Shown one piece after another: positions 6,803 through 53,209 of a stretch of 60,075 bases of DNA. The stretch comes from Minisyncoccota bacterium (GTDB taxonomy: Bacteria > Patescibacteriota > Microgenomatia > UBA1400 > PJMF01), in NCBI GenBank assembly GCA_009991965.1, contig JAACWQ010000007.1, positions 1 through 60,075 of the forward strand, written 5' to 3'. Below the pieces are notes generated by a model, which worked only from the letters and a program-made list of their open reading frames with translations, was not told the origin of the DNA and made no database searches. Positions within the stretch are counted from its first letter, which is position 1. The number at the start of each line of letters is the position of its first letter. The translations under genes were made by a program, and so were the position numbers.

Positions 6803-6808
6803 ATTACT

Positions 6809-8945: not shown

Positions 8946-8950
8946 ATACC

Positions 8951-27266: not shown

Positions 27267-27267
27267 T

Positions 27268-27951: not shown

Positions 27952-28014
27952 AATTCTTTCTTTAGACGAGTTTACTCGAGCATTGTAGCACAACTCTATA
28001 ACCGAAAAATGAGG

Positions 28015-34534: not shown

Positions 34535-36013
34535 TTAGGCCTGGAGAGATTTGCGAATAAAAGCTATTTCTCGTTGCAATTGTTGGTCGAGTAGCACTTC
34601 TTTTTCAATTTTCTTTACGGCGTGTAAAACACTCGTGTGATCTCGATTGGCAAACCAGCGACCAATTTCTATAAGCGGCAACGAAAGCTCTTGTTTGAGG
34701 AGATACATCGCGATATGTCGTGCAGTAACCAGATTTTTTACGCGACTTTTTCCTTTGATAGCAATTTGTTTGACCGAAAAATGTGTGGCAACGGTTTTAA
34801 TAATTTCACTCGGGGAAGTACGTTGTGAGAGACGTTGCTCCAACGGCTGAGAATTGGAGATGAGTTGTTCGATTAATTCTTCGTTAATTTCTCGACCCTG
34901 AAGTTCCACCGCAGAACGGAGAAGAGTAATAATACCCTCAATCCTTCGAGCTGAATCAACAGTTTCAGCAATGCGTTTCGCGAGATCAATTGTGATGGCG
35001 AGATTTTGAGCTTGGCTTTTGAGAAGAATAATTGCGGTTCTCAGTTCAAACGACGGTTCTTGAATATCAATCATAAGTCCTGCTTCAAACCGAGAACGCA
35101 AACGATCTTCGAGAAGACGAATTTCTTGTGGCGGTCGATCTGAAGTGAGTACAACCTGACAATTCTTTTTAGTTAGTGCATTGAAAGTATGAAAAAATTC
35201 TTCTTGCACCGCATTTTTTCCTGCAATAAATTGAATGTCGTCAATGAGAAGTACTTGTGCCGAACGATAGCGATCTTTGAATTGACTGGCTCGTTTTGTC
35301 TGAATGGCCTGGACAATTTCATTAGTAAACTCTTCGCCGGTACAGTAAATCATCTGACTCTGAGGATTGGCTCGCAAAATATTATTGGCAATCGCGTGCA
35401 TAAGGTGCGTTTTGCCGACCCCAACCCCTCCATATAGAAAGAGTGGATTATATGAGCTGCCGGGCTGATTTGACACCGCTGTGGCTGCCGCATGAGCCAT
35501 CTCATTACTGGTTGAGACCGCAAATGTTTCAAAAGTGAAGTCTGGGCGCAAACCAATCTGTTTACTGCGCAAAAGCCTGCGATCAATGGAGGCGGTCTCA
35601 AGTGTGGCGGGAGAAAATAACTCTTCAACTCGAGGGGATGGAGAGTACTCTGGTCGAGTAAGCAGCGAATTGAATGTCTGATTTTTGTCTGGCGCATGTA
35701 TTCTTTTTTCTTCTTTGGAGACCGTTGGGAGCGAACCGATAAAATAAACAACTTCTACCTGATGTTTGGTGAGGTCGCTCAGAGATTGGATAAACTTTGA
35801 GTGAAAATTCTTTTTGACGTTAGTTGAATGAAATGCGGTTGGACTAGTAATGGTAGCCTGCGCGTGCTGTGTATCAATATATTCAAGACTTGTGAGTGGG
35901 TTGGCGACAATCCACGTATTAAAAACAGCCGAGCTTAATTCGGTTTTGAGCTGCGCACAGCATTGCTGCCAAACACGAGAAACTTCTTCTGGTGAGAGAA
36001 TTTTGGATTCCAT
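34535..36013 (-). CDS. dnaA: Chromosomal replication initiator DnaA
   Basis: GGVGVGKTHLMHAI, LLIDDIQF, C-terminal DNA-binding ...ARHIAMYLLKQ...GRWFANRDHTSVLHAVKKI. Confidence 0.97.
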   Translation of the reverse strand: MESKILSPEEVSRVWQQCCAQLKTELSSAVFNTWIVANPLTSLEYIDTQHAQATITSPTAFHSTNVKKNFHSKFIQSLSDLTKHQVEVVYFIGSLPTVSKEEKRIHAPDKNQTFNSLLTRPEYSPSPRVEELFSPATLETASIDRRLLRSKQIGLRPDFTFETFAVSTSNEMAHAAATAVSNQPGSSYNPLFLYGGVGVGKTHLMHAIANNILRANPQSQMIYCTGEEFTNEIVQAIQTKRASQFKDRYRSAQVLLIDDIQFIAGKNAVQEEFFHTFNALTKKNCQVVLTSDRPPQEIRLLEDRLRSRFEAGLMIDIQEPSFELRTAIILLKSQAQNLAITIDLAKRIAETVDSARRIEGIITLLRSAVELQGREINEELIEQLISNSQPLEQRLSQRTSPSEIIKTVATHFSVKQIAIKGKSRVKNLVTARHIAMYLLKQELSLPLIEIGRWFANRDHTSVLHAVKKIEKEVLLDQQLQREIAFIRKSLQA

Positions 36014-36078: not shown

Positions 36079-37992
36079 TTATTGGGACGGAGGTTGGTAG
36101 TCGTCGATCGTGCTTGTGAGTGATTCTCGAGTAGCTTTTGGTACTTGGGGTACTACTGCAGTTTCCAGCGCTCTTTGTTTGTTTTTCTGCAAAATTTCTT
36201 CTGGATCCGTAGTGATAATGCCATGTTCCTCCGGACTTGCTACAACGCGGAGCGCAACGTGATTCTGTCCAGCAAAAAAGATGCCTTCGCCAACATCGGC
36301 GGTTACTAATAATTGCCGCTCTCCTTGCGAAAGATAAAACGTTTCCGCTAAAACAGGAATAGATGCGGTCGATTGTTTCATTAAAAACTGAATTGAGGCG
36401 TTTGAGATAATGGCTTTGCCATACTCATTGGAAACAAAATCTTCTACATCCTGAGTAATTGTGGTAATACCAAGGTAATATTTCCGCGCACGCTTGACCA
36501 TTGAATAGATAAAGGAGGCCGAATCCTTCGTCTTCATAAAGTACCAAGCCTCATCAATAACAAGAATACGTTTCTTGAGTTTTTTCTTCACCCGTGTCCA
36601 GATGTAGTCGAGGATAATATACATAGCAATTGGTCTCAGACCCTCTTCCATTTCTTTGACGGAAAAAACTGTTAGTTGATTGGTAATATCAAAATTGGAA
36701 GGTTGGTCAAAAATGCCGCGGAATGAGCCAGTGATAAATTTTTCCAAACGAGCCGCGATGTTATTGGCGTCTTCGGTTTCCATGCCAATCAGCGCTTTAT
36801 ACACATCTTCCATGAGTGGCGGCTCAAGAGTTTGGGTGGCTGGATCTGGCGTAATACCCTTGGCTTTGTAGGCGGCCACGAGCGCACGATCGAGGAGCGC
36901 ATCTTGCTGCGGGGTCATTTCACCCAGCATGACTTTGAGCAAACCATGGAGTGAAATTATTTTTTGACCAAGCTCGTTTTCACCCTCTTCGTAGATATTA
37001 GAAAGATCAAAGGGATTAATGCGCGCTTTTGAACTAAAAGTGAAATTGAGATATTCGCCCCCAACTGCCTTTGATAAATCTTCGTACTCATGCTCAGGAT
37101 CAAGCACAATAACCTCTATCCCAAACATAAGTTGGCGGAGTATCTCGAGTTTGACAGTATATGATTTTCCTGCACCAGATTTGGCAAAGATAATCATGTT
37201 GGCGTTTTCCATTTGGAAGCGGTCAAAAATAACCAACGAATCATTGTGTTCGTTGATGCCATACATAATGCCGCTCTCCATCGTCAACTCCGAAGAGGTA
37301 AAAGGAAAAGTGGTGGCAAGTGAAGTGGTGTCCATGTTGCGGGTTACAAGCAGTTTATCGACACCCATCGGCAACGTTGTTTTAAATCCCTCGTCCATTT
37401 GCAAGGTGGCGTTTTTGGAAACTATTAATAACGAGCCGAGTGACGACTGAATGCTCTTGGTTACGCGATTGAGTTCCTCAAGTGATTGCGCTGTTGCAGT
37501 GACATAGAGACCAAATTGAAAAAATCGTTCTGAGCCTTTGGCAAGTTCTTCGCGGATAAATCGTGCGTCTTCGAGTTTTACCTCGGTGTTGATATTGCTG
37601 ATTTTGCCATTGCGCAGATCTGATTGGATTTCGGCTTCCATCTCAGTAATTTTTCGCTTTAGGTTGTCGAGCACCTCTCCAGAATCAACTGGAAAAATAA
37701 ACATTGAAACATGCATTTGGTGCGGAAAGTTGATAAGTGGGCCAAGCCAGTTGGCTGGCACGCTTCTGGGGTAACCAGCCACAAAAAGCGTGCGCGTATA
37801 AGTCGAGTTAATTTTTTGATAGGTAAAATCAACCTCAATTGCCTCAGGAGCAATAATATCCTGAATTGTTACTAAGCCACGCGAAAACTCTTGAATTTTT
37901 TCAAGTGATCGAGCCTGAGCGTCATCCTTGGTGGGGGTGGTATCAGCTTTTGGCTTTTTTCCGAATGGTAGTAAAGAACTCAGGCTGGGCAT
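36079..37992 (-). CDS. virB4: VirB4/TrbE/ConE-family T4SS ATPase (lacks the most N-terminal VirB4 segment)
   Basis: Walker A MIIFAKSGAGKSYTV, Walker B RILVIDEAWYF, ...GITTITQDVEDF.... The N-terminal ...YTRTLFVAGYPRSVPANWLGPLINF... is typical of the VirB4 middle region. Confidence 0.85.
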   Translation of the reverse strand: MPSLSSLLPFGKKPKADTTPTKDDAQARSLEKIQEFSRGLVTIQDIIAPEAIEVDFTYQKINSTYTRTLFVAGYPRSVPANWLGPLINFPHQMHVSMFIFPVDSGEVLDNLKRKITEMEAEIQSDLRNGKISNINTEVKLEDARFIREELAKGSERFFQFGLYVTATAQSLEELNRVTKSIQSSLGSLLIVSKNATLQMDEGFKTTLPMGVDKLLVTRNMDTTSLATTFPFTSSELTMESGIMYGINEHNDSLVIFDRFQMENANMIIFAKSGAGKSYTVKLEILRQLMFGIEVIVLDPEHEYEDLSKAVGGEYLNFTFSSKARINPFDLSNIYEEGENELGQKIISLHGLLKVMLGEMTPQQDALLDRALVAAYKAKGITPDPATQTLEPPLMEDVYKALIGMETEDANNIAARLEKFITGSFRGIFDQPSNFDITNQLTVFSVKEMEEGLRPIAMYIILDYIWTRVKKKLKKRILVIDEAWYFMKTKDSASFIYSMVKRARKYYLGITTITQDVEDFVSNEYGKAIISNASIQFLMKQSTASIPVLAETFYLSQGERQLLVTADVGEGIFFAGQNHVALRVVASPEEHGIITTDPEEILQKNKQRALETAVVPQVPKATRESLTSTIDDYQPPSQ

Positions 37993-38000
37993 CGAGTATC

Positions 38001-38987
38001 CTAAATCTCCGGCATTGGAGGTGCAGCTGGCGTCGCCACTGGAGTCTCCGTAGGTGCTGGTGCTGTTGGGGCAGCCATACCTCCTGGTGGGATTGGTGTA
38101 ATAGGAGCCTGTCCTAGTTCTTGTACGGTTGCATTGAGGTCTGCCTGCGTTGTGGATTCATCGGCAGTTGGAACCATTGGTTCTGGCATGGTTGGCGCAG
38201 GCATTGCAGGCGCAGCTGGTGGCATTGGAGCCATCGGCACAACGGGAGCCATTGGTTCTGGTGTGGCTGCGGGAGCCGGGTTGGTTGGTATTTGAGCGTC
38301 CATATGCTCTCCTTGTATACGTGCGCGCACGAGCGGCGCACTATAACTACTACTTTCAGCGATATGTTGACCTTCAGCCGCCTCAGGGTTGTACTTAATA
38401 TAGAACAACTCGATAATTTCCTGAGTTGTGAGTTGGCGAGAAAACAGTCCAATACGCGCAAATTGGGCGGCTAAGTGATCTCGCTTTGGCTCAAGCAACT
38501 GTATCGCTTTTTCAATAATAACAGATCTCTCCATACTTTCGATCCCCGGAGATTGTTTGCCAGGCAATACACTTGAGGGTGCAATCATACCGAGCTCTAG
38601 AGGAGAGGCAGGGATGACGACATAGAATTTTTTGTCGAGCACGTTGCGATCGTGAATGAGATTGCTAACAAATTCTCGATATTTGCGAATTCTTCCTTGC
38701 ATGATGGGGGAGGAAGTTTCTGACTCTTGTTGTTCGAGAAGTTTGAGATATGTGGTGACGTCTTTAGTGCGCGAATTAATCACTATTTGAATAGGATAAT
38801 TCAGCGAATTTAAGAGGCCTGCGTAGGCATACATGATGGCATCTTGCTCTGCTTCTGCCAACAAACCAAAATTCATCGCATCAACTATCATAATGAGCGA
38901 AGTGGTGCCGTCCTTCATGAGCAATAAATCGTTGGTGATGTCGTAAATATCGAGGAATGATTGGGTTGTGGTTACTGTGTCGGGCAT
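38001..38987 (-). CDS. Protein resembling the N-terminal segment of Gram-positive VirB4 (ConE/Orf16/PrgJ type) with a Pro/Ala/Met-rich C-terminal tail
   Basis: TQSFLDIYDITNDLLLMKDGTTSLIMIVDAMNFGLLAEAEQDAIMYAYAGLLNSLNYPIQIVINSRTKDV matches my recollection of the VirB4 N-terminus (...i.dgiv..kdg.y..ileie.iNf.l.s.eEq..i...f..fL......iQi...). The tail from ~aa 232 is PMAP-type low complexity. Confidence 0.5.
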   Translation of the reverse strand: MPDTVTTTQSFLDIYDITNDLLLMKDGTTSLIMIVDAMNFGLLAEAEQDAIMYAYAGLLNSLNYPIQIVINSRTKDVTTYLKLLEQQESETSSPIMQGRIRKYREFVSNLIHDRNVLDKKFYVVIPASPLELGMIAPSSVLPGKQSPGIESMERSVIIEKAIQLLEPKRDHLAAQFARIGLFSRQLTTQEIIELFYIKYNPEAAEGQHIAESSSYSAPLVRARIQGEHMDAQIPTNPAPAATPEPMAPVVPMAPMPPAAPAMPAPTMPEPMVPTADESTTQADLNATVQELGQAPITPIPPGGMAAPTAPAPTETPVATPAAPPMPEI

Positions 38988-39038
38988 GATTGTTATTTTG
39001 TAGTTCTCATCGTAGCTTGTTTCAAGTAGCTCAGCAAG

Positions 39039-40256
39039 TTATGCGGTGCTGCGAATCTCGATAGGATCGACCAACTGACCAGTTAAAATAATACTTTGAC
39101 TAGGAAATTGTAGTTGGTCTTTTTCCGCCTCCACGACATATTCGCCATTAGCGAGAGGAGTGGTGATAAAGAATTGACCCAGGGCATTGCTTTTAACGGC
39201 GCGCTCTATTGAGCCGTTAGATTTGCGAATTTCTACAATGGCATCGGGTATAAGTTCGTTTTGTGCCGAAAGCACCATGCCAACAAGCTTGTTAGGGGTA
39301 TTTGGCTTGTCAGGAAATGGAAGGTTGTCGTTGAACACTGCTTTGCTTGTAGCGGCCGTTGCCTCTGCAGCAACAGCACCTTGGTCTGCAATAAAAACTT
39401 GTTCTTTTGGCGCTATTACTGGTAGTTTCTGCAAAACACCGTCATTTGACGTATCTATTTCGATAGAAATGGCTCGTGTCTTTGGGATGGAAATGTTTTG
39501 TGCTACTTGTTCGGTTGTTAGATACTCACTTTTTTTTGTGCGATCGGTTGCGGCATGAAGGAGTGTTTCTACGGTGGTTGCTGCTTCAATAGGTTGTGCG
39601 ACAGCGTCTTCTCCCTGAGAAAAACTGGTAAAAACTTGCTCAAACGAGCTTGTTTGTCGCAAATCCCGCACCCGAGTTTTAAGCATTGGTTTTTGGGTTA
39701 CGCGTGGTGGTGTAGTCGATATATTTTTCGCCCGCACTTTGGTTGTGTCAAACAAAGCGTTTATGTCTTGAATTTGTTGGCGTTCTTCTGCGAGCAAACC
39801 ATCGCTGGGGATTTCGTATTGAGTGGACGTCAAATACTCTTTAATTCGTTGTCGGCGAATAGGCGAGAGATCGATTTCTTGCTCTGGTGTTCTGCTGATT
39901 TTCCCCTGCTGAAACAAAAATGCGTCAGGAATTTTCACTTTTCGTTTCCAGTAATACTGTGTTGGTTTGTATAGCACTCTAAAAAACGTAATGATCCAGT
40001 GATCGATCGGTCGCTCGGCAATTGGGACAAACGCTGCTGCAGCACCAAGCCCGAAAGCAACGAACATAAGTGGCCACTTTATGATTGGGAAGAGGTTAGT
40101 GCTGTATATGACAAACGCAATAATTGCGCCGAGTGCTACTTCGCCAAACTGTTTGAGCGTCATACTCCCGACGATGTGAAATCGGTAACCAGTTATATCT
40201 TGTGGGATCGGATGTTCTCGCATATAAGCTCTTCCATTGTAGAGGTAATGGAGCAA
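39039..40256 (-). CDS. PrgI/VirB3-like membrane protein fused to a long extracytoplasmic extension with a carboxypeptidase-regulatory-like beta-sandwich
   Basis: The N-terminal PIPQDITGYRFHIVGSMTLKQFGEVALGAIIAFVIY plus a second TM matches the PrgI-family pattern. It sits directly upstream of the VirB4 genes. The C-terminal VGMVLSAQNELIPDAIVEIRKSNG...ALGQFFITTPLANGEYVVEAEKD is CarboxypepD_reg-like. Confidence 0.65.
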   Translation of the reverse strand: MLHYLYNGRAYMREHPIPQDITGYRFHIVGSMTLKQFGEVALGAIIAFVIYSTNLFPIIKWPLMFVAFGLGAAAAFVPIAERPIDHWIITFFRVLYKPTQYYWKRKVKIPDAFLFQQGKISRTPEQEIDLSPIRRQRIKEYLTSTQYEIPSDGLLAEERQQIQDINALFDTTKVRAKNISTTPPRVTQKPMLKTRVRDLRQTSSFEQVFTSFSQGEDAVAQPIEAATTVETLLHAATDRTKKSEYLTTEQVAQNISIPKTRAISIEIDTSNDGVLQKLPVIAPKEQVFIADQGAVAAEATAATSKAVFNDNLPFPDKPNTPNKLVGMVLSAQNELIPDAIVEIRKSNGSIERAVKSNALGQFFITTPLANGEYVVEAEKDQLQFPSQSIILTGQLVDPIEIRSTA

Positions 40257-40285
40257 AGAGCCAAGTTCAATGATGGGTTTGTCGT

Positions 40286-40867
40286 CTATTCCGTTAGAGA
40301 CTCTGGCCCAGCGCCAGATTCAGACAGAGATTCACCGTAACCTGCCAAAAATTCTTCTTTTGTGGTAGGGACAAAAAACCACTTTTGTTCGACCACATCG
40401 CCATCGACGTGCGCAACGACCGCAAGGCCGTTCTCTAAAAATACATGTACTCGAACAGAGTCTGGCGAACTCGTGTCATAAAGCACAAAGGTTGGTTGGC
40501 CATACTCGGATACATACCGAGATAGTGTGTGTTTGGGGTCAAAACTGATAAATTCTTTGACAAATTGCACTTTATTTTCGGTATCTACGTGGACTTGATT
40601 GGGGTGGACGGCAAAATCAGAAGCATAGAGATACTCTGTGTCGCCTTTTTCTGTTTTAATTGACTCTAGCGGCTGACCAAGCTCTTTTTGTTTGTTGGTG
40701 GAAAAAACATCCCCTGGTCGCGCCGCGCCAAAAGTTGGGGCAGCCTCTTCTGGTTTGGGTGTGATTGCCTGCAACGCAATAGCAGCGATAAGTAATGCAA
40801 ATGCCGAGACGGCCAGTGTGTGATACCAGCGAGCAAAAATCCAGTGGGGTTGGGATGGCTGTTGCAT
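40286..40867 (-). CDS. Bitopic membrane protein (N-terminal TM + ~150-aa external domain), function unknown
   Basis: TM is YHTLAVSAFALLIAAIALQAI. There is a 1-bp gap to the upstream giant gene and a 29-bp gap to the PrgI-like gene. The topology is that of VirB8/PrgL-type components, but no sequence motif is recognised. Confidence 0.5.
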   Translation of the reverse strand: MQQPSQPHWIFARWYHTLAVSAFALLIAAIALQAITPKPEEAAPTFGAARPGDVFSTNKQKELGQPLESIKTEKGDTEYLYASDFAVHPNQVHVDTENKVQFVKEFISFDPKHTLSRYVSEYGQPTFVLYDTSSPDSVRVHVFLENGLAVVAHVDGDVVEQKWFFVPTTKEEFLAGYGESLSESGAGPESLTE

Positions 40868-40868
40868 A

Positions 40869-43800
40869 TTAGTATTCTACCCCTCCAAATACATTATTTT
40901 TTAACCAAGCGTGTTCTTTGGGATGCACTTGTTTTAGGTTATACACCCTATAGTTGGTAACATAACGCGCTATTGCTTCGGCAAAAGCCTCACCGTCTGC
41001 GCACCGATCGGGAAAGGGATAATTAAAACAACTATACAGATTACTTGGCAATGTTGCTACAAAAGTTGCGCGCAGCCCAGCATTGCGATTGTCGACGATG
41101 TGTCCAAGTTCGTGAATAAGTGTGTACTCGGTAGAAATTGTACTCGAAAAGGTGGGTGTATACAGGGCAATAGAGTCACTGGAAGTTGTCCAGCCGTAGT
41201 ATCCACTCGCATTGCTTGCGAGTCGGTAAATAGTAATGGGACCTTTAGCACAGACAAGCGAGGTAAACTTCGGGTTTTCCAAAATTGAGGCGCTGTATGC
41301 TGCACGAACTTTACTCATGTCAGCATCGGTTGTGGTAATCGTAATGTAGGGATCTTTTTCTGTGCCGAGATTAATTCCAGCAGTTCCTGGGGTAAAACAA
41401 CCAATGGTTGGATTTCCAATGACAACTGCCGCAAGTGCGGTGATGGTTTCGTTGGTAGAAAGTTTGTTACCGGCGGTGTCAAACACATCAAAAGTAATAG
41501 TAAGTGTGTTAATCACCATAACATCTACTGCAGAGATGGTGAGGGAGTAGGTTGGTTCGGCAGGGCCCGTCATGATTTCTGGAGGAAAACTATTGAGTGT
41601 TAGTGGAGATTTGAGGCTAAGATCACAGCTGTGTTCTTGTTTTTTATCACAACCTTGATATGAAAAGGCATCTTTTACTTGTGTAACCTGAAGTCGATAC
41701 TCTTTTTTTGGCTCGAATTTGATGGCATAGGTGACATCGGTTGAAATAGGACTAACGCTGTCGTCAATGCTCTCCGGCGAGGCTGTTTTTTCGAGTGTGG
41801 CATATTTGGATAATTCTTCGGTTTTTCCAACCACTCCTTCCGACGGGACTTTGATTAAAAATGCGCTGTAAATAATAAACAACACTTGGATGGATAAAAA
41901 TAATCCAATACCAATGCCGATGAGTGGAGCGGCAGTCGCGGTGACAGCCGCAGCAGTTGCACCGAGAAAGCCAGTGAGCGACGAACTGCCAGCAGCGGTT
42001 GTGGTGGGGCTAGCTTGGGCGAACGCATCTCCCGCAACAGCACTCGTTTCTGGTGCGCTGGTGAGCGCAGTTTGTTGGCTATAGCTGAGTGGTTGGGTCG
42101 CACCAGTGTTTGCAGCCCGCATGGCCGACATTGATTGGCCTGCTCCACTACCCGAGCTGAGCGAACTACCTGCGGTGCCGAATGGAGAGATGGGCGCGTG
42201 GGGAGTCCAACCCATTAGGCCCGTCCATTGTCCTCCCAACCCAGGGATTGCTGCACCAACATTTGCCCCAATCATGCCACCGGCTACTGCACCAACTGGT
42301 CCTAGTGCTGCTCCGAGGAATGCGCCGATTGCTCCCCCAGCTGCACCACCAACTGTTGTGAGCGCATACAGTGTTTTGCCGACAGCGAGTGCTCCGCCAG
42401 CAAGGGCGATTTGTCGCAATGTTTTGTTCTGCCAAATTGCTAGTGCGGCTGCTGGAACTACGCCAACGCCGGTAGCTGCCAACCCAGCTTTTAACGCTGC
42501 ACCTTGGGCAAACTTTCCTGCTAATGCCTTGCCAGCTTTTTTCATTAGTGCACTACGAATAGAGCTGGCTATCTGCGATTTAGCACTAGAGGAACCTTGG
42601 CCGTAGTCATAGGTGTAGGGATCAGTGCCGACGTTCATCCCAGCTAGTTGGGTGATTGCGAGCGGAGCTGCTCCGGAGGTCATCGCGATTTGAATTGCGT
42701 TTTGATTGGACTCTCCTTCTGCTACCGCCAGTCCCATTTGGGCGGCAATCATGGCTGCTTGTTCATCTTTGATGTTTTGGATTACCTCAGCAAGCACTTG
42801 TTCGCGTAGTTTGGCGACCTTGACTTGTTGAATTGCAATTCGATCTTGGATATCCAGAATTGGATCAATTACATGTATATTTTCTGTCCCGATACCTACC
42901 AGGAATTTACGAATTTCTGTGCTGTTGTAGGTGTTAAGCTTGGGCGGAATGGGGAGTGAGCTAAATCCTGCAAACTGACTAGAAGAGCCAACACCTTCAA
43001 TCTTGTCATAGAGCTGTGATTGCACATCTTTGGGCAAAGAACTCCACCAAGCAGCGTGGTTTTTTTCCACGGGAGTAACGGGAGTTGTGAGTGCGGCGAT
43101 TGTTGTTTCTGCGCCAAAGCTCGTCAGCATTTGTCTCGACTGGGGGATGGCCGAAAGCGCTCGTTGTACGGAGGCTGGGTCACTTGGGATGGCGCCTTGT
43201 AGCCCGCCAGATTGCAAAAATTGTTGCCCACCACCCATTTTAAGATCGCTCAAACGAAGGCTGATTTGGCTTTGGAGTGTAGCTATAAAAATAGGAGCAG
43301 TGGCGGCAGTAAGTGTGCCTGCGGCAAGACCAAATGCAAGCTCGAGTCGATTGGCTGAGATCTTCTTGACAAACTCAGGTGCTGCATCGCCAAACTCCAA
43401 AATCATTGCGTCGATAGTCGCCGCGGTGTTTGCAACAACAATGGGAGTTGCTCCGCCCCCGAGTGAGGCTTGTAGGTCGGCAGCCAACGCATCTTTTGCG
43501 CCCACAGATCTCCCGAGAATGCCATTTCGATATACAGCCTCAAACTGCGCTGCTTCTGTAGCATCTGTTTGTTGTATGAATCTTCCATACTCAATGAGGA
43601 AACTAGTTATTTGTGGATACTGTGACGGTAGGTTGATTGCAAAACGTTGATAGAGAGAAAGTAGATACGTTGGGTCGCTTTGGGCCAAGCGTAGTTGGGT
43701 GTCGGTGAGATTGAGAATTTCTCTTCGGGCAAACTCCGCAAGATCTCGGCGAATATTTTGTGCCGAGAGATCAAGTTCTGGCGATAGTTTATACAAGAAA

Positions 43801-45152
43801 ATTCTCGTTTTGCGAAAAATCTCATACTCTGCGTGGGTGGCGAGGTACTCTGCAGCAGTTTTTTGCAACTCGCTTTCGGAGGTTGTTTGTGTCACAACTT
43901 GTTCTGGTCGTTCTTTTGGAATTGCTTCGATGACTGCGTGTTGTTTAATGGCAGAAACAACTTCCTGTTTTGGCAATTCGCCAATGATTTCTGCCAGCGA
44001 TAGATTATCAATTTCCAATTTTGCCAGTTTTTCAGCGAATTCCTCAGCACGCACTGGGCTGACTGCCGCAAGCTCGTCACCAAGTTCTGTGTATAAATGT
44101 GTGATTCCAGCAACTAATTTTGGTGTGGTGCCAATGGTATGGATAAATTGACCAAAAATAGTAAGGCGAAGTTTTCCATCTTCTCCGCTCAATAATTGTT
44201 GGGTACGTGTTGGGTGAGAGATCAAGAAGTGGTATAGTTCTTCGTTGAAATTTGCTGCAAGATCACTCCAAATTTGGTCAAGTTCTGCGCTGGCGTGATC
44301 ACCTCGAATGTTGTTGTAAAACTCAAATTCGAGCATCGACAAAAGGTTTTGGCGCTCAATCTGAAATTCTCTTGTATGTGATTGTAAGAATTTCTGAAAA
44401 TCTTCGCTAGTCTCTAGCTGTTGTGAATCAGTAGGTTCGCTTTGGTCTTGTCCTTCACCCGCATCACTCTGATCGGAAGAGCCAGCGCTGTAAGCAGTCA
44501 CTGCAGCAGAGATGGCTTCGCCGTCTACTTTGGCGCTAGAAACGTCGCTAGCTAGAGCACTTGTGGCGCTGTCCGAAGGAGTCGATACTGCCGCATGTTC
44601 TGCAATCGCGGCACTGGTAGGAACAATTATTCCCTTGCGAAATTCTTCAATGTCAGTGTCAGAAAATATGCTTGAAATGCGACCCGCAGTCTCTTTTCCT
44701 AGGCGTTTTAGCCAGTATTGCGGATCCATTGATTCAAAAAAAATGAGATGTGGGCTGTGATCCCAACTCCAAAATAATCGCGAGATATCGGTAATTATTT
44801 GCGCCCAATCAGGAAGAAATAGTAGCTTTGGTCTCTCAATTTCCCCTGTGTTGCCAAATTGCTTCTTGCCCTCTGTGGTCAGTTTTACCACTCCCTGGCT
44901 CAGCAGTTTAATAATTATTTCTTGGTTGTCGATCAATTGGTACTTGGAGTCAATCAGTTTGGTTAAATCGTCAAACAACTGAACAAGTTGCGGTCGTTCT
45001 TCTGGAGTGTAAACACCCAGACGCTTGACTTGATCGAGGGGAATAAGGTTGTCAGCCGAAAAAATTGAGCCAAATGCAGCCCGCGCTTGGTCGCGCAAAC
45101 CAGTATCTTGGGTGGTTGTTGGTTGTTGCTGATCTGTGTCGGTATCCGCCAT
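40869..45152 (-). CDS. Giant (1,427 aa) membrane protein: acidic N-terminal ~830 aa, Gly/Ala-zipper TM bundle, S/T/A linker, and a C-terminal external domain with an HExxH zincin motif
   Basis: Gly-zipper region ...GGAAGGAIGAFLGAALGPVGAVAGGMIGANVGAAIPGLGG.... Last TM PLIGIGIGLFLSIQVLFIIYSAFLI. HELGH is encoded at 41100-41114 (minus strand), with GEAFAEAIARY ~40 aa downstream as a possible third ligand. Confidence 0.6.
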   Translation of the reverse strand: MADTDTDQQQPTTTQDTGLRDQARAAFGSIFSADNLIPLDQVKRLGVYTPEERPQLVQLFDDLTKLIDSKYQLIDNQEIIIKLLSQGVVKLTTEGKKQFGNTGEIERPKLLFLPDWAQIITDISRLFWSWDHSPHLIFFESMDPQYWLKRLGKETAGRISSIFSDTDIEEFRKGIIVPTSAAIAEHAAVSTPSDSATSALASDVSSAKVDGEAISAAVTAYSAGSSDQSDAGEGQDQSEPTDSQQLETSEDFQKFLQSHTREFQIERQNLLSMLEFEFYNNIRGDHASAELDQIWSDLAANFNEELYHFLISHPTRTQQLLSGEDGKLRLTIFGQFIHTIGTTPKLVAGITHLYTELGDELAAVSPVRAEEFAEKLAKLEIDNLSLAEIIGELPKQEVVSAIKQHAVIEAIPKERPEQVVTQTTSESELQKTAAEYLATHAEYEIFRKTRIFLYKLSPELDLSAQNIRRDLAEFARREILNLTDTQLRLAQSDPTYLLSLYQRFAINLPSQYPQITSFLIEYGRFIQQTDATEAAQFEAVYRNGILGRSVGAKDALAADLQASLGGGATPIVVANTAATIDAMILEFGDAAPEFVKKISANRLELAFGLAAGTLTAATAPIFIATLQSQISLRLSDLKMGGGQQFLQSGGLQGAIPSDPASVQRALSAIPQSRQMLTSFGAETTIAALTTPVTPVEKNHAAWWSSLPKDVQSQLYDKIEGVGSSSQFAGFSSLPIPPKLNTYNSTEIRKFLVGIGTENIHVIDPILDIQDRIAIQQVKVAKLREQVLAEVIQNIKDEQAAMIAAQMGLAVAEGESNQNAIQIAMTSGAAPLAITQLAGMNVGTDPYTYDYGQGSSSAKSQIASSIRSALMKKAGKALAGKFAQGAALKAGLAATGVGVVPAAALAIWQNKTLRQIALAGGALAVGKTLYALTTVGGAAGGAIGAFLGAALGPVGAVAGGMIGANVGAAIPGLGGQWTGLMGWTPHAPISPFGTAGSSLSSGSGAGQSMSAMRAANTGATQPLSYSQQTALTSAPETSAVAGDAFAQASPTTTAAGSSSLTGFLGATAAAVTATAAPLIGIGIGLFLSIQVLFIIYSAFLIKVPSEGVVGKTEELSKYATLEKTASPESIDDSVSPISTDVTYAIKFEPKKEYRLQVTQVKDAFSYQGCDKKQEHSCDLSLKSPLTLNSFPPEIMTGPAEPTYSLTISAVDVMVINTLTITFDVFDTAGNKLSTNETITALAAVVIGNPTIGCFTPGTAGINLGTEKDPYITITTTDADMSKVRAAYSASILENPKFTSLVCAKGPITIYRLASNASGYYGWTTSSDSIALYTPTFSSTISTEYTLIHELGHIVDNRNAGLRATFVATLPSNLYSCFNYPFPDRCADGEAFAEAIARYVTNYRVYNLKQVHPKEHAWLKNNVFGGVEY

Positions 45153-45244: not shown

Positions 45245-45511
45245 ATGTACACAGCAACAGTCACTGCCCAAGGGCAAATCACTATTCCCATTGCGCTGCG
45301 TCGAGCGCTCAAGCTGGATCGAGCCAAGGTGATTATTACTCAGACTAATGCAGGAACCATTGAAATAGAGCCAGAGCCAGATATTATGTCATTGTTGGGG
45401 TCGGTAAAAGCAACCACAAGCAAATCGATTAGTGAAATAGTCGAAGAAGAGGTTTTGAAAGAATACAAAAGAACAGAAAAACGCCTGTCAAATACGCCGA
45501 TTATTGTGTAG
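45245..45511 (+). CDS. vapB: AbrB/SpoVT-fold antitoxin (VapB-like), second copy
   Basis: MYTATVTAQGQITIPIALRRALKLDRAKVIITQ is a swapped-hairpin motif. Immediately followed by a PIN gene. Confidence 0.75.
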   Translation: MYTATVTAQGQITIPIALRRALKLDRAKVIITQTNAGTIEIEPEPDIMSLLGSVKATTSKSISEIVEEEVLKEYKRTEKRLSNTPIIV

Positions 45512-45896
45512 CCGTATGCAAAAGTTATTTGTCGACACCAATGTCATCATTAGTTATTTGACCCAAAGAAACTTAGAACAAACCTTGGAGATAGTAAAAA
45601 CGTTTCAAGAAGCAAATGAGAATGAATTGCAACTATTTATTACCTCAGAAGTACTCCTCGAAGCTTCTTTCGTGCTCAAGCGCTACAACCTTTCGCGCCA
45701 AGAGATTGCACAAAAGCTATTGGCGGTAGTGAAATCACCCACTTTTTTTGTATCTGAGAAAGATATCTTTATAGGAGCTTTGGAACTTTTGAAAGATATA
45801 AACGCTGATTTAGCAGATTGTTTGTTGTACGTGCGCTCACGAAAAGCGGGCGCAGGTGTCTACACGTTTGATAAAGATTTTACTAAGTTCGACTAA
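45504..45896 (+). CDS. vapC: PIN-domain toxin (VapC-like), second copy
   Basis: KLFVDTNVIISYL..., ...TSEVLLEASFVL..., ...DLADCLLY.... The true start is probably MQKLF at 45516. The 3' end overlaps the convergent EamA gene by 4 nt. Confidence 0.8.
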   Translation: MCSRMQKLFVDTNVIISYLTQRNLEQTLEIVKTFQEANENELQLFITSEVLLEASFVLKRYNLSRQEIAQKLLAVVKSPTFFVSEKDIFIGALELLKDINADLADCLLYVRSRKAGAGVYTFDKDFTKFD

Positions 45897-46804: not shown

Positions 46805-47263
46805 TTAGCGTAAAAGCTTGGATTTGACTATTGATACATCGCTCGCCAATTGTTCCTTGAGTGCAAGTAGCGAAATAAAATCCATTGGTGGGCGGACAAA
46901 TGCACCAACTTGAAACTCTACAAACTGGTCGTACACATCTGCAGTAAAATCAAGCACGTGGATCTCGAGCACATTGTGTGTCTCGCCTTTGACCAAACGA
47001 GGCCCGTAGTAGAGCGCTCCCATGTATTCATTTCCCCCCACACGCACTTTGGCAGCATATACGCCAGGGCTTGTTCGCAGGTTTGCTGGCCAAAGCGAAG
47101 GCTCAAGATTGAGACTGGGGAAGTTAATAGTGCGACCAGTTTGATCACCGTGTAGGACTAAGCCAGATATCCAGGTTGTCGGTTGTTTGTTCACACGCTC
47201 ATTATACCCGCTTCTCATACTCGGCAGGTCTGGGGTATAATTTGGGGTGTTATGGTGCCACAA
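46805..47263 (-). CDS. Stand-alone riboflavin kinase domain protein
   Basis: ISGLVLHGDQTGRTINFPSLNLEP...PGVYAAKVRV...GPRLVKGETHNVLEIHVLDFTADVYDQFVEFQVGAFVRPPMDF follows the RibF C-terminal kinase pattern (G.V..G...Gr..gfPT.N......GVY......rP......lEvh.lDf..dlY). The start is possibly Met16 (47218). Confidence 0.7.
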   Translation of the reverse strand: MWHHNTPNYTPDLPSMRSGYNERVNKQPTTWISGLVLHGDQTGRTINFPSLNLEPSLWPANLRTSPGVYAAKVRVGGNEYMGALYYGPRLVKGETHNVLEIHVLDFTADVYDQFVEFQVGAFVRPPMDFISLLALKEQLASDVSIVKSKLLR

Positions 47264-50200
47264 GAATCAGACATAAGCTCGCAAGAGCCAAAAAAAGAAG
47301 AGAAACTTTCTGGTGTTCGGGTCGCCGATCAATTAGAAGCGGCAATTAATGCAAAACATCGCGATCAAGTTGTAGCACTATTGGCACAGATTCCTGACGA
47401 CGATGCTGTTCAAGAATTAGCTGATGATTACCTGATTTATACAAGATTGACTGAATTGGCTGGCCTGGCCTCAGATTTTTTGGCGAGAAACATAGAGGCC
47501 GTATCCGAAGCTACGTCAGAGGTAGATTCATCAAATTTTGACCAAGATCGTCGGACACTAAATACGATATTGCATGAGGCTCAAATGGGAGCAATTACGA
47601 GTAGAGCAGATGCTCAATTTGCGATCAGAACCAGATTGATCGGAGATTTTGCTAATTTTTCGCCAGAAGAACAAGACGAAATAACCGGCTTGACCTCTAA
47701 AATACTCGCTCTTTTTCCCGTTGGTGTGGGAGTTTCTCAGGAGCCTCCAAGAGCTAGGGCGGAAAACTCATTTACTGACCAGACTCAAGCTGTTAGGAAT
47801 GCTATTGCAGCCACAGATCTAGATGCGGCATGGAATATTTTGCAGCCACTCATTGTAGGTCGTTTTGCAGTTGAGGTAAGTCCTACCGAGCGAAATGATG
47901 TTGCGCGACTCGCAGTTAAGATTTTTACTGCCAACATTGAACAATTAAGGCAATTAATTGCCGATCATGGTATTTCAGATGTAGTAACACAAGCTGTTCG
48001 AGCACTTGAGGCTAGAGTGCGCGCGAATCGCAACTTGTTTGTAAATCCTGCCGAAGCACAAGTTCTTTTGAGCACAATTGATGAGCTGCTTGATCAAGCT
48101 TTGGAAGAAGAGGTGGTTCCTGACGTAGCAGAAGATCGGGAGTCCTCAAGACAACGACTGTTGCAGGAATTTAATGAGGCTACTGAACAATTGCGAGAGC
48201 TGCTTAATAGAGCTGAGGCAATAAACAAAGAAACTGATGAGCTGCTTGAAAGTGATATTCAGGCTATGATCGATGAAACTTCTAGAGAAAGACGGATTTT
48301 AAATGCACCTGATTTTGAAAGATATTCTGGTTTGTTTGAATCAGAAATTAAGGTATTAGAGAGACGTTTGGCGAACATAACCCCACTTTTAGGTGAATAC
48401 AAAGATTTTTACAGGGTTGAGCAGTTGCGTTATATGCCAATAGAGCAACTAGCAAGACTGAGTAAGTCTAGAAATGCAGACCCATTTCTTTTTAGCAATA
48501 TTCGAGAATCAAATATGGATCCATATGATAAGGCGATAGCATTGGCAGCGCAAAATAGACTACTTGGTTCTTGGAGGGAAGGAGATTCTCCGGCAGAAAA
48601 TAGAGAGCGAGAGACATGGAAAGTTTGGTTGCAATATAAATATATGGAAGCAAAGTTGCAAAATGAGGCCGAAAAAGCTTCGTCAAAAAGAAGAACAATT
48701 GTTGATTCAAAAGACAAGACTAGCGCGCTAGAAGATGCTCTCAACTCACATGTGGTTTCAAGAGACGAGGTTATGAGAGTTATGGCTCATGATGTTCGAT
48801 GGGGTAATGATTTTAAGATATTAATAGCTGCCGCAATTGCGCAGGCAGGTTTGCGCGATGTTCCTCCAGGACATGTACGTTCACGATATCCATCACCAGC
48901 AGACACTGAGCGTAGGTTGCGTGACGAAGGCATTAGGCGCGAACCTATCATGACAAGTGAGGGGCAGATGGTGTTGGTAGATGGAAGAATTTACAAATAT
49001 TCTTCTGCAATGTCTTATGAGTCTCTTGCTGATGAGCAAAGTGGCAGAGCTGCCTTAGATAGATTTTTTCGAAATTTTATTATAGCTAATGCGCAAGATT
49101 CTCAGGAAGTAAGAAGACATGCTCACCCAATGGCTATTGAATTTGCAAATTTAGCATATATTACACACTCCCTCTTGGACGATTCGTTTTTAGAACTACA
49201 AGCTGCAACAAAGACAAGAGCTCACAATGCAATGGCTAGCGAGCCTGATACCCTAAGTATAAATAAATGTTTGGCAATTTCTCCTCACAGAGTTGCTCGA
49301 TATGCTCGCCCAAAAGATTGGTCACAGCTAATTTTTCCATATTTTGATCTTGAAAACATGCCAAGTTATTACTTTGAATCCGATGATGTTAAGCACCAAA
49401 TTTTACACACAGTGCACTTATTTGAAATCACTCAAAAAGTGCTATTTGATACAGATCAGTTTTTCCACGTACTGCCTTTCCCAAAATACCTAGAGCTGTT
49501 ATTTCCTAGTGTTAGGTCACTTGTTGAAATGCAGAAGGGAGAAACTATGTGGGTTTCAGCTTCGGAAGTGAGCGAAAATGAAACTGATCAGTGGTTGGTT
49601 GATCATAACAATAACTTGCTTGCTGTCCAAGACAGCGAAGGTAGTGTGTGGTCTCCAAATGATGCTAGAAATGATCGAGGCAGTGATTTTTTGGGCAGGT
49701 TTGAAAACCCACGTTCACTGAGAACTACTACGCTTAATTCAGCGGATGAGATCTCATACGGTCGCTTTATTTTGCCGAATCGAAACTCAGTAGACACCAG
49801 TACTGCAAAAGTGACATTTGAAAACAGAAGTTTTGGAGTAGTTGGCAAGCCCAAAGGTAAGGATTTGTATTTTATAGCAGAGAAAGGGTTTGAAAGGGTT
49901 CTTGAGTTGACCTTTGGCTCTCTTCCCGCAGAATTGAGTTATAGGGATATATTAGAAAGTTTTGGTGCTGGAAAGGCGGGGTTGCTCAACGAGTGTTTGT
50001 CTGCATGGGGTATGGCAAAGGTGTTCCCTTGGGAGAACTTAGACAGATTGTTGGCGCCATTGCTGGGTCATTATCTCATGAGACTTATTGCGGCATTCGA
50101 AAAGGAAATGCCGCGAGACAGAGTAGAGCTGGTAAAGGGCATATTCAGCCAACTAGGAAGAGCGTCAACGTATGGGGGTTTGGGTTATGAGAACTTAAGA

Positions 50201-50620
50201 TTGCAGGTCGATGGTGTTTTGCGAATGTTGGAAGAAGATCAAAATCATATCCAACCAATAAATCAGTTTAAAAATGTAACGGTTACTACCTGGGGCCCAT
50301 ATGGAATTACTGGCGACAAGACAATTAATCTTGCCCCATCTGTTAATTTTTACGAGAATCATCGAGAGAAAGAGCTTCATCAGGCAATAACGGAAATTTT
50401 TGTTGAAGAGCATCCAAGTAAGCCAATTCCACCCATATCTACTGCCGTTGGAGTGTCAATAAAACAAGGAATTTGGAGATTGGGTGAAAAGCTGAAATAT
50501 CAACCGCTAGATAAAGATCAGGAGCATCTTATTGCACAAGCAAAATGGGAGGCTTCAATTGCGCCGCAGATAGATAGGAATGTTGAGATAGTTGACAAAA
50601 AAGCCGGAAAAGAGTCTTAA
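47252..50620 (+). CDS. Large (~1,120 aa) soluble hypothetical protein, no recognisable domain
   Basis: Uninterrupted ORF with no TM or signal peptide. The N-terminal third looks acidic and helical. Start placed at Met24 (MVPQESD) to avoid overlapping the divergent kinase gene. AT-richer than its flanks by eye. Confidence 0.6.
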   Translation: MVPQESDISSQEPKKEEKLSGVRVADQLEAAINAKHRDQVVALLAQIPDDDAVQELADDYLIYTRLTELAGLASDFLARNIEAVSEATSEVDSSNFDQDRRTLNTILHEAQMGAITSRADAQFAIRTRLIGDFANFSPEEQDEITGLTSKILALFPVGVGVSQEPPRARAENSFTDQTQAVRNAIAATDLDAAWNILQPLIVGRFAVEVSPTERNDVARLAVKIFTANIEQLRQLIADHGISDVVTQAVRALEARVRANRNLFVNPAEAQVLLSTIDELLDQALEEEVVPDVAEDRESSRQRLLQEFNEATEQLRELLNRAEAINKETDELLESDIQAMIDETSRERRILNAPDFERYSGLFESEIKVLERRLANITPLLGEYKDFYRVEQLRYMPIEQLARLSKSRNADPFLFSNIRESNMDPYDKAIALAAQNRLLGSWREGDSPAENRERETWKVWLQYKYMEAKLQNEAEKASSKRRTIVDSKDKTSALEDALNSHVVSRDEVMRVMAHDVRWGNDFKILIAAAIAQAGLRDVPPGHVRSRYPSPADTERRLRDEGIRREPIMTSEGQMVLVDGRIYKYSSAMSYESLADEQSGRAALDRFFRNFIIANAQDSQEVRRHAHPMAIEFANLAYITHSLLDDSFLELQAATKTRAHNAMASEPDTLSINKCLAISPHRVARYARPKDWSQLIFPYFDLENMPSYYFESDDVKHQILHTVHLFEITQKVLFDTDQFFHVLPFPKYLELLFPSVRSLVEMQKGETMWVSASEVSENETDQWLVDHNNNLLAVQDSEGSVWSPNDARNDRGSDFLGRFENPRSLRTTTLNSADEISYGRFILPNRNSVDTSTAKVTFENRSFGVVGKPKGKDLYFIAEKGFERVLELTFGSLPAELSYRDILESFGAGKAGLLNECLSAWGMAKVFPWENLDRLLAPLLGHYLMRLIAAFEKEMPRDRVELVKGIFSQLGRASTYGGLGYENLRLQVDGVLRMLEEDQNHIQPINQFKNVTVTTWGPYGITGDKTINLAPSVNFYENHREKELHQAITEIFVEEHPSKPIPPISTAVGVSIKQGIWRLGEKLKYQPLDKDQEHLIAQAKWEASIAPQIDRNVEIVDKKAGKES

Positions 50621-52421: not shown

Positions 52422-52706
52422 ATGAAAACACAGAAATCGCCTGCTGCAAAAAGCACTCACATCAATATTCGGATAGCACCAGTTCAGCGAGACCTGATCG
52501 ATCAGGCTGCTCAAGTACGGGGCAAAACACGTTCGGAATTTATTCTAGATGTGGCGGCTCGAGAAGCAGAGAATACGTTGTTAGATCAGCAGTTATTTTT
52601 ATTAGACGACACAAAGTGGGAGGCGTTTGCTGCAATTCTTGATGCTCCTGTCCGTCAACCAAAAACTCTACAGACATTGCTAGCTACTCCAGCTCCATGG
52701 GATTGA
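52422..52706 (+). CDS. tacA: DUF1778 / TacA-type RHH antitoxin
   Basis: KSTHINIRIAPVQRDLIDQAAQVRGKTRSEFILDVAAREAENTLLDQQLFLLDDTKWEAF is the DUF1778 pattern. Overlaps the GNAT gene by 10 nt. Confidence 0.85.
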   Translation: MKTQKSPAAKSTHINIRIAPVQRDLIDQAAQVRGKTRSEFILDVAAREAENTLLDQQLFLLDDTKWEAFAAILDAPVRQPKTLQTLLATPAPWD

Positions 52707-53209
52707 GACCAACCCCACTCACCAGATCACATGATTTGTCAGATTTTTCCTCTAGTGAACCAGAGCTGGACGATTGGTTGAGGCGTAGAGCACTACAAAA
52801 TCAACTTTCTGGCGCCTCTCGCACCTATGTTGTAGTAGTTAAAAATAAAGTAGTTGCCTACTATGCGTTGGCAAGCGGTTCTGTTATGCCGCAAGAAGCT
52901 CCAGGTCGGATTCGACGTAATATGCCCGATCCGATTCCAGTGGTAATTTTAGGTAGATTGGCTGTTACAGAGGCATGGCAAGGCAAAGGACTTGGCAAGG
53001 CATTGCTTCGAGACGCCATTTTACGCACTCTGCAGGTAGCAGAAAAGATTGGTATCAGAGCTATTTTAGTTCATGCTTTGCACGAACAAGCTGCCGCTTT
53101 TTATCAGCATCTTGGCTTTTTACCATCACCGATGAGTAAAACTATTCTGGTTCTCTCCCTCAAAGATGCTCAAGCAATCTGTAGACACTTCCCCGTTGAT
53201 ACACTCTGA
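52697..53209 (+). CDS. tacT: GNAT-family acetyltransferase toxin (TacT-type)
   Basis: FSSSEPELDDWLRRRALQN..., ...ILGRLAVTEAWQGKGLGKALLRDA... (acetyl-CoA binding Q/RxxGxG). Paired with DUF1778. Confidence 0.85.
   Translation: MGLRPTPLTRSHDLSDFSSSEPELDDWLRRRALQNQLSGASRTYVVVVKNKVVAYYALASGSVMPQEAPGRIRRNMPDPIPVVILGRLAVTEAWQGKGLGKALLRDAILRTLQVAEKIGIRAILVHALHEQAAAFYQHLGFLPSPMSKTILVLSLKDAQAICRHFPVDTL

Follow-up and report, generated by a model that had tools for sequence, protein, structure and literature searches.

Gene content of the locus

We analysed a stretch of 60,075 nucleotides (hereafter the window) from the genome of a Minisyncoccota bacterium (GTDB lineage Bacteria; Patescibacteriota; Microgenomatia; UBA1400; PJMF01; assembly GCA_009991965.1, contig JAACWQ010000007.1, positions 1 to 60,075), which carries genes for a type IV secretion system (T4SS) immediately next to dnaA. 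Very probably this is a vertically inherited chromosomal T4SS of a Pacebacteria-like member of the Microgenomatia, belonging to a clade of Patescibacteria T4SSs that stems from monoderm conjugation machinery (mating-pair formation class FATA, MPF-FATA) and has been repurposed for a non-conjugative role. Its core consists of five minus-strand genes separated by gaps of 1, 29, 51 and 8 nt, and the tight packing (1-51 bp) reported in a preliminary description of this DNA therefore holds. These genes are listed here in order of transcription, followed by dnaA.

40869-45152, minus strand: giant membrane protein, 1,427 aa (transmembrane scan, AlphaFold2, Foldseek, positional orthologues)
40286-40867, minus strand: bitopic membrane protein, 193 aa (one transmembrane segment, aa 14-38)
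39039-40256, minus strand: PrgI/VirB3-like protein with two transmembrane segments and a C-terminal CarboxypepD_reg-like beta-sandwich, 405 aa (PrgI, CarboxypepD_reg)
38001-38987, minus strand: TrsD-like (VirB4-N-like) protein with a Pro/Ala-rich tail, 328 aa (VirB4_plasma, TrsD NF041427)
36079-37992, minus strand: VirB4 ATPase, 637 aa (NCBIfam NF045971, Pfam P-loop_TraG and AAA_10, Walker A)
34535-36013, minus strand: dnaA, genomic context (recognized from its translation; 65 bp downstream of virB4 on the same strand)

Pfam scans covered the principal (non-nested) open reading frames (ORFs) of the window, approximately 47 proteins, and precomputed Pfam matches were searched over the next 10 kb beyond its right end, bringing the total examined to approximately 70 kb. 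Coordinates prefixed L081 refer to sequence beyond the window (L081:269-3015 is equivalent to ~66.9-69.7 kb). Synteny and identity counts in relatives are for 80 fetched loci, out of at least 179 GTDB species genomes with VirB4 relatives, and the profile tests of the TrsD-like and PrgI-like proteins used 28 orthologues each. Membrane topology was taken from a transmembrane (TM) scan, structures were predicted with AlphaFold2 (AF2) and compared by Foldseek, and the families of small membrane partners described below were aligned by hhalign.

The conserved VirB-type proteins of the core operon

The VirB4 ATPase was matched by the equivalog model conju_CD1110 (NF045971) with 377 bits against a cutoff of 325, as well as by Pfam P-loop_TraG (E 3e-24) and AAA_10, and has a Walker A motif (AKSGAGKS) at aa 270. 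Its nearest solved structure is the VirB4 of a Firmicute, Thermoanaerobacter (PDB 4AG5, E 3e-44), and both the NF045971 and the 4AG5 matches place it with the monoderm (FATA)-type VirB4s. Because the NF045971 match spans only profile positions 179-733 of 752, the protein appears to lack the N-terminal domain of full-length VirB4s. A search for Walker A motifs found VirB4 to be the sole P-loop ATPase of the wider gene cluster described below. A second ATPase hidden in the locus was considered and rejected, the other Walker-A-like string (GALAVGKT) lying in the Gly/Ala-rich membrane region of the giant.

The protein encoded directly upstream of virB4 aligned to the N-terminal region of VirB4 (VirB4_plasma positions 112-235, E 2e-6). 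Among its orthologues this VirB4 N-terminal region was matched in 28/28 and TrsD (NF041427) in 25/28 (best E 1e-7), and PF26593 (TraC-like) is listed by JGI on an orthologue. The next protein matched PrgI with 25.7 bits at aa 16-97, 1.3 bits below the Pfam gathering score of 27, and PrgI was matched in all 28 orthologues (best E 2.3e-9). The TM scan placed its TM segments at aa 40-73, CarboxypepD_reg was matched at aa 324-383 and the C-terminal sandwich is carried by 28/28 orthologues; judging by the alignment, the true start of the gene is probably an ATG at ~40223. These profile results bear out the VirB4, VirB4-N-like and PrgI-like calls of the preliminary description. PDB sequence-profile searches with the family alignments of the TrsD-like and PrgI-like proteins found nothing. 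In a scan of 33-46 kb for promoters and terminators the counts were at chance level, and the virB4-dnaA interval contained no terminator.

A giant membrane protein with an exchangeable peptidase module

The 1,427-aa giant begins with an orphan domain of ~850 aa that has no signal peptide. A Gly/Ala-rich membrane region comes next, then a TM helix (~aa 1072-1104) and finally an ectodomain of ~320 aa. The N-terminal domain is presumably cytoplasmic, because it has no signal peptide; an exhaustive HMMER search with the N-terminal 860 aa gave six matches among 1.84 billion representative proteins, none of them informative. A word-indexed search with the whole giant listed five matches, low-complexity words having probably saturated its candidate list. 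The AF2 model of aa 1081-1427 (mean predicted local distance difference test, pLDDT, 74.7) shows a beta-sandwich followed by an alpha/beta domain that holds HELGH (aa 1347) and a downstream GEAFAEA. By Foldseek the ectodomain matched immunoglobulin-like sandwiches (E ~1e-4) and, weakly, M1 gluzincins, phage IrrE-like proteins/zincins and metalloproteases. The C-terminal domain is accordingly described here as HExxH zinc-peptidase-like and predicted to be extracellular, on a weak fold match.

Positional orthologues of the giant (1,100-1,680 aa) are present in nearly all loci, and most of them end in Peptidase_M23 (PF01551; Pfam E down to 1e-14), which was found in the orthologues P0123, L002, L008, L027 and L038 as well as in the family consensus. 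When the PDB was searched with the family profile, the M23 domain of the orthologues was the only match (E 1e-19). The window giant gave no Pfam match to M23 (HxxxD...HxH, PF01551) and has HELGH...GEAFAEA in its place. Because HExxH occurs here and M23 in most positional orthologues, the giant appears to be anchored in the membrane and to carry an extracellular zinc peptidase module that can be exchanged.

The 193-aa protein encoded next to the giant was without match in Pfam and NCBIfam scans, and a homologue search returned five close homologues. The TM scan gives it a bitopic topology as in VirB8, and by eye only it looks beta-rich, with two similar halves. Homologues of this protein and of the HExxH domain were found in an identical set of 10 of the 80 loci. 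M23-type loci encode another partner (320-390 aa), which has only an N-terminal TM motif in common with the 193-aa protein (hhalign probability 91% over 32 columns). The 193-aa protein would then be the partner of the HExxH-type giant, apparently swapped together with the peptidase module.

The wider gene cluster: pilins, wall hydrolase and a VirB6 candidate

The core operon belongs to a super-locus of ~34 kb with 11 pilin-domain genes, which was found via homologues of a polytopic membrane protein in two distant relatives (44-47% identity; L084 and the P0021 locus). The conserved order is an extracytoplasmic function (ECF) sigma gene, a tandem pilin array, a giant hydrolase, a ~300-aa protein on the opposite strand, the polytopic protein, a large soluble protein on the opposite strand, optionally ribF and eamA, then the giant, the small membrane protein, the PrgI-like protein with its sandwich, the TrsD-like protein and VirB4. 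Members that lie in the window outside the core operon are as follows.

59067-59474 and 59494-59973, minus strand: two VirB2-like pilins, 135 and 159 aa (Pfam T4SS_pilin)
54769-59046, minus strand: SLT giant, 1,425 aa, secreted or anchored, last gene of the pilin operon (SLT domain)
53237-54064, plus strand: conserved soluble protein, 275 aa (no Pfam match)
50631-52310, minus strand: candidate VirB6-like polytopic protein, 559 aa (signal peptide, ~6 TM segments, C-terminal tail)
47183-50620, plus strand: large soluble protein, 1,122-1,145 aa (no Pfam match, TM segment or Walker A)

Both pilins noted in the preliminary description passed Pfam T4SS_pilin (40.6 and 26.8 bits against a gathering score of 26.6), yet the array is not one of two genes: they form the 3' end of a series that extends past the window (L081:6986-9957). 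A profile made from six Pfam-positive pilins matched nine tandem small genes and, beyond the window end, two larger proteins, which together are the 11 pilin-domain genes. The larger proteins (L081:269-3015; 409/422 aa and 506 aa) are secreted and have Cys-rich N-domains and a C-terminal pilin domain (custom hidden Markov model, E ~1e-11); they could be tip or adhesin pilin fusions. An ECF sigma gene with small downstream ORFs (possibly including an anti-sigma factor) lies divergently beside the array (L081:6411-6959, ~63.0-63.6 kb), and likewise in the P0021 locus. Such a neighbour in two lineages this distant suggests that the pilin/hydrolase operon has a regulator of its own.

The SLT domain of the giant hydrolase (aa 1258-1303) scored 23.9 bits against a cutoff of 21.3, which upholds the earlier reading of this gene as a wall hydrolase. 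An E-S motif is visible in the sequence (AHSESS), and the TM scan gave a TM or signal segment at the N-terminus. In L084 the orthologue (35-40% identity) comes straight after the pilin array, the same placement as here. A role as a VirB1-like lytic transglycosylase is predicted for this protein. A PDB sequence-profile search with it found nothing useful. Motifs recalling TIM-barrel glycoside hydrolases (GPNEPD...ITETEPW) occur at aa ~150-300, where there was no profile match.

The polytopic protein, called VirB6-like in the preliminary description, gave no Pfam, NCBIfam or PDB-profile match, and none of its homologues in the Microgenomates, at least 629 in number, has a Pfam match. In its AF2 model (pLDDT 63) R388 TrwI/VirB6 chains recur among the top Foldseek matches at non-significant E values of 0.5-3. 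In the two relatives, too, the gene lies between the hydrolase/pilin operon and the core operon. What remains of the earlier call is thus topology, conserved synteny and a weak, non-significant structural resemblance, profile support being absent, and a VirB6-like identity is plausible but unproven. A counterpart of the large soluble protein (979-1,444 aa) occupies the same position on the opposite strand in both L084 and the P0021 locus (tblastn E 5e-13), and the 275-aa protein has a 50% identical counterpart at the same position in L084 and is present in the P0021 locus too. Because this order is shared with two distant relatives, both ORFs appear to be part of the conserved T4SS neighbourhood.

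Conservation in relatives and the search for mobility genes

In the fetched loci the gene order is giant, small membrane protein, PrgI-like, TrsD-like, VirB4, dnaA, dnaN, (rnpA), yidC and DUF4012. dnaA follows virB4 in 68 of the 69 loci with enough flank, the TrsD-like gene adjoins virB4 in 72/73, and the PrgI-like gene lies upstream of virB4, two genes away, in 66/66, with sub-threshold scores in some members. VirB4 is 72-93% identical across the 80 species loci, the labelled ones being Pacebacteria, Woesebacteria or Microgenomates. Median identity in the relatives is 81% for VirB4, against 55% for DnaA, 52% for YidC and 35% for DnaN, and the G+C content of the operon is the same as that of its flanks. 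Because synteny with dnaA is kept, VirB4 is more conserved than DnaA and G+C is unshifted, the locus appears to be vertically inherited under strong purifying selection, a core system and not an integrated conjugative element (ICE).

No type IV coupling protein (T4CP), relaxase or recombinase/integrase was found in the Pfam scans of the ~47 window proteins or in the 10 kb past the right end. Both stretches are free of tRNA genes, and no direct repeats able to bound an element or att-like flanking repeats were found in them. The Pfam scans returned housekeeping genes, toxin-antitoxin pairs and type IV pseudopilins. These results bear on the possibility that the locus is an ICE, or a recent remnant of one, sited near dnaA with its relaxase, T4CP and integrase outside the window, as an ordinary ICE would have them. 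The homology of VirB4, TrsD and PrgI to MPF-FATA conjugation proteins and the several toxin-antitoxin cassettes inside the region speak for such an origin, and the negative extends over ~70 kb of a 101-kb contig. However, neither a relaxase with a T4CP nor an integrase with att or tRNA bounds is present in those 70 kb, the dnaA-adjacent position and gene order are identical in ~70 species-level relatives, VirB4 is better conserved than DnaA, and G+C equals that of the flanks. The toxin-antitoxin cassettes, moreover, are lineage-specific insertions lacking in relatives, and in the survey by Quiñonero-Coronel et al. 2025 (Microb Genom, PMC12102498) relaxases were present in only 103 Patescibacteria genomes. 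An ICE is therefore extremely improbable and largely refuted. The preliminary description was right to place the locus in the core chromosome next to dnaA, without T4CP, relaxase or recombinase in the window, and to see in it a domesticated apparatus and not an ICE.

Three of the cassettes, two MazE/PIN pairs and one TacA/GNAT (TacT-like) pair, are at 23858-24537, 45245-45896 and 52422-53209, two of the three inside the super-locus. Another, a Gp49/HigB-like toxin with a helix-turn-helix antitoxin (54115-54752), is flanked by a 20-nt direct repeat, ATAGCGCGCGGCTAA[A/T]TTAT, at 54050-54069 and 54749-54768, one copy of which holds the last codons and the stop codon of the 275-aa gene. Because of this flanking repeat and because the cassette is missing at the matching position in the relative L084, it looks like a recent insertion with target duplication. 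As a group, the MazE/PIN, TacA/GNAT and HigB/HigA-like cassettes are, by comparison with relatives that do not have them, lineage-specific insertions.

Several other features of the window and its relatives were recorded. The G+C skew changes sign sharply, from -0.22 to +0.09, at ~28.0 kb (27000-29000), at the boundary of the L25 and DUF4012 genes and ~6.5 kb from dnaA; with a putative origin placed by the usual skew convention, transcription of dnaA and of the T4SS operon would oppose the movement of the replication fork. The window has 19 DnaA boxes where 13 would be expected, which is no enrichment, and the 65-bp virB4-dnaA spacer holds two one-mismatch boxes. The DUF4012 membrane protein (943 aa, 28015-30846) is conserved downstream of dnaA-dnaN-yidC in 57/80 loci and may be another envelope component of this origin-proximal block. 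Of the related metagenome-assembled genomes (MAGs), many are titled 'uncultured Pseudomonadales', and single ones bear the titles 'Limisphaerales' and 'candidate division TM6' (CP011212); L002, L006, L009 and L072 are among the loci concerned. These titles look like taxonomic mislabels, because all of the MAGs carry the Microgenomatia-type virB4-dnaA block at 75-89% identity. At the left end of the window, 115-2520 encodes an 801-aa protein whose Peptidase_S74 (endosialidase chaperone) domain is characteristic of the tail fibres of phages. It is followed by three paralogous AAA_14/DUF4143 ATPase genes (2884-4221, 4307-5488 and 6731-7996) with an AbiEi/AbiEii toxin-antitoxin pair between them (5518-6692); in the relative L052 the T4SS operon is split by a fourth ATPase gene of this kind. 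Three type IV pseudopilin genes with N_methyl motifs (8000-9634) belong to a pilus system distinct from the T4SS.

Comparison with known type IV secretion systems

Like the MPF-FATA modules of Firmicutes (TrsC/TrsD/TrsE of pGO1, PrgI-PrgJ with the PrgK hydrolase of pCF10, CD1110 of CTn2), the window encodes a CD1110-family VirB4, the order VirB3-like protein, TrsD, VirB4, and multi-domain wall hydrolases. It differs from them in having no relaxase, T4CP, oriT or plasmid/ICE backbone, in its VirB2 pilins, which Gram-positive conjugation systems lack, in its giant subunits and in being a chromosomal and apparently vertically inherited locus. Helicobacter ComB, a DNA-uptake T4SS, is not known to have a dedicated coupling protein in its locus. 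Bordetella Ptl and Brucella VirB, too, have no dedicated coupling protein in the locus, as stated in PMC12102498. Unlike the window, which has no counterpart of them, Ptl, Brucella VirB and ComB are diderm MPF-T systems with VirB7/9/10 outer-membrane cores.

The closest characterized system is that of Southlakia epibionticum ML1 (Wang et al. 2023, Cell, PMC10633639), encoded by SEML1_0006-0019 a few genes from dnaA. It is nearest to Gram-positive conjugative systems, yet its pilins are essential and no recognizable coupling or relaxase proteins are present; transposon sequencing found its T4SS genes to be essential, those for VirB4, the VirB4 neighbour, PrgI and the pilins among them (PMC10633639). 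Besides VirB4, its unnamed neighbour, PrgI and six pilins, Table S2 of that paper lists a lysozyme/cysteine-protease protein, an NTF2-like protein and proteins of 998 aa, of at least 1,105 aa (with a Hedgehog/DD-peptidase fold at its end) and of at least 1,085 aa (VirB6-like). Shared with the window are the location near dnaA, the order large protein, PrgI, unnamed TrsD-like VirB4-neighbour, VirB4, the tandem VirB2-like pilins, a polytopic protein that is VirB6-like in Southlakia and a VirB6 candidate here, a lysozyme-type hydrolase, a large protein ending in a peptidase domain (a zinc DD-peptidase fold in Southlakia), and a locus in which no relaxase or coupling protein is recognized. Southlakia, however, is a member of the Saccharimonadia, another class than the Microgenomatia of the window, and its hydrolase and peptidase genes lie between virB4 and dnaA, whereas in the window virB4 is the immediate neighbour of dnaA and the operon starts with the peptidase giant. 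The peptidase fold, with the giants compared by description only, is M15/Hedgehog-like in Southlakia, HExxH in the window and M23 in most Microgenomatia. Southlakia PrgI has no CarboxypepD_reg sandwich, which the window PrgI-like protein carries; the NTF2-like (VirB8-like) protein of Southlakia was not found in the window locus; and six pilins there compare with 11 pilin-domain genes in the window super-locus.

The survey PMC12102498 describes a monophyletic Patescibacteria VirB4 clade related to MPF-FATA, with TrsD, remotely homologous to the VirB4 N-terminus, as the commonest partner, with PrgI/VirB3 homologues, and with VirB2 genes in arrays of 2-11, most notably in Microgenomatia and Saccharimonadia. 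VirD4-like genes are mostly distant from virB4, and virB4 is close to dnaA, dnaN and rnpA in Paceibacteria and Microgenomatia. The window matches this account in its FATA-related VirB4, the TrsD beside virB4, PrgI, the VirB2 array, the absence of a relaxase and the proximity to dnaA. Two points differ: only 22.6% of the VirB3 homologues in Microgenomatia are reported as virB4-associated, against a virB4-linked PrgI-like gene in 66/66 loci here, and VirB6 is reported as scarce in Microgenomatia, whereas the window super-locus has a conserved polytopic VirB6 candidate. The low VirB3 association is probably due to scores hovering near the threshold. The available part of the survey makes no mention of the giant subunit, of peptidase swapping or of the co-varying partner. 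A December 2025 FEMS review (PMC12857230) gives a matching account of the Patescibacteria T4SS.

The preliminary description had held the composition (two giants, a split VirB4, PrgI) to be undescribed. This does not stand, because PMC10633639, PMC12102498 and PMC12857230 cover the TrsD and VirB4 split, PrgI, pilin arrays, the absence of relaxases, a distant or absent T4CP and the proximity to dnaA; Southlakia also has large subunits. The locus is a lineage variant of the already published Patescibacteria T4SS and not a new architecture. The additions made here are modest, namely a map of the ~34-kb super-locus, a virB4-linked PrgI and a VirB6 candidate, and a peptidase of the giant that is apparently swapped together with a small partner.

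Proposed function

For the assembly of the apparatus, its substrate and the direction of transport we infer the following. A VirB4 hexamer would power assembly and translocation, with the TrsD-like protein providing the VirB4 N-terminal domain in trans and the PrgI/VirB3-like protein tethering VirB4 to the membrane. The polytopic VirB6-like protein would form the membrane platform together with the 1,427-aa giant, which would contribute its membrane region, and the large, diversified set of VirB2-like pilins would polymerize into a pilus or conduit. Two giant wall enzymes, the SLT transglycosylase and the predicted extracellular zinc peptidase of the other giant, may open peptidoglycan, the cell's own or that of its host. 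By analogy with the essential Southlakia system, the apparatus would most likely be used for contact with the host cell and for export, and not to conjugate DNA. The most plausible function on this analogy is that proteins or other effectors are exported into a bacterial host, and conjugation is very unlikely.

The wall-cutting enzymes and the pilus would serve equally well in a machine for import, whether of DNA, of nucleotides or of other material from the host, comparable to Helicobacter ComB or to the Ced system of archaea. Patescibacteria lack nucleotide and amino-acid synthesis, there is no coupling protein nearby, as in ComB, and the window VirB4 weakly matches the models of Ced ATPases (CedB, E 8e-16; CedD, E 2e-8). 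These matches, however, are far under the model cutoffs and reflect the common ancestry of VirB4 and HerA, and the window gives no pointer to the direction of transport. Southlakia transformation, moreover, needs ComEC and type IV pili (PMC12857230). Because comEC can be deleted there without loss of viability and the T4SS is essential, nutritional DNA uptake is not the essential role of the Southlakia T4SS, and we consider import improbable for the system described here.

Another alternative is a device mainly for pilus assembly and adhesion, in which a variable VirB2-type pilus and two large tip- or adhesin-like pilin fusions would recognize the host and no substrate would be translocated. 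It would accord with the number of pilin-domain genes, 11, with the large, Cys-rich extracellular N-domains that two of their products have, with the ECF sigma gene beside the array in two lineages and with the failure to find nearby a T4CP, the usual substrate receptor. Pilin arrays also vary across Patescibacteria, according to PMC12102498, and the pilins of Southlakia are essential (PMC10633639). Adhesion, however, is already provided by a separate type IV pilus system, known from the literature and represented here by the pseudopilins at 8000-9634, and a pure pilus role leaves unexplained the large cytoplasmic domains, that is the presumed one at the N-terminus of the giant and the 1,145-aa protein. 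A role restricted to pili and adhesion thus seems rather unlikely.

Several points weigh against our reading of the locus as an export T4SS of the Patescibacteria clade. We know of no cultivated representative of the Microgenomatia, and essentiality is extrapolated from the Saccharimonadia, a different class. Membership in the clade is deduced from best-hit identity (72-93% to genes of Pacebacteria/Woesebacteria MAGs) and from the NCBIfam assignment. A T4CP may lie elsewhere in the genome, the negative for coupling proteins covering ~70 kb of the 101-kb contig. The fold match of the HExxH domain is weak, its peptidoglycan-cleaving activity being a prediction, and the VirB6-like assignment is without statistical support (best Foldseek E 0.5 at pLDDT 63). 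No VirB8-like component was identified in the locus.

A more speculative proposal, which we put forward as rather doubtful, concerns the giant. It might act as a modular 'wall-drill' and as a platform for substrates that only the T4SSs of Patescibacteria have. Its extracellular zinc peptidase module (HExxH, M23 and possibly M15-like in Southlakia) would be exchanged between lineages together with a cognate small membrane partner, and the system would thereby be tuned to the cell-wall chemistry of the host, and so to host range. Its N-domain and the 1,145-aa soluble protein would then replace the coupling protein as substrate receptor.

Among T4SSs, those of Patescibacteria are the first found to be essential for the cell that carries them, and no other monoderm system is known to have VirB2 pilins. 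The locus described here leaves that picture unchanged and adds to it one more member, from the Microgenomatia.

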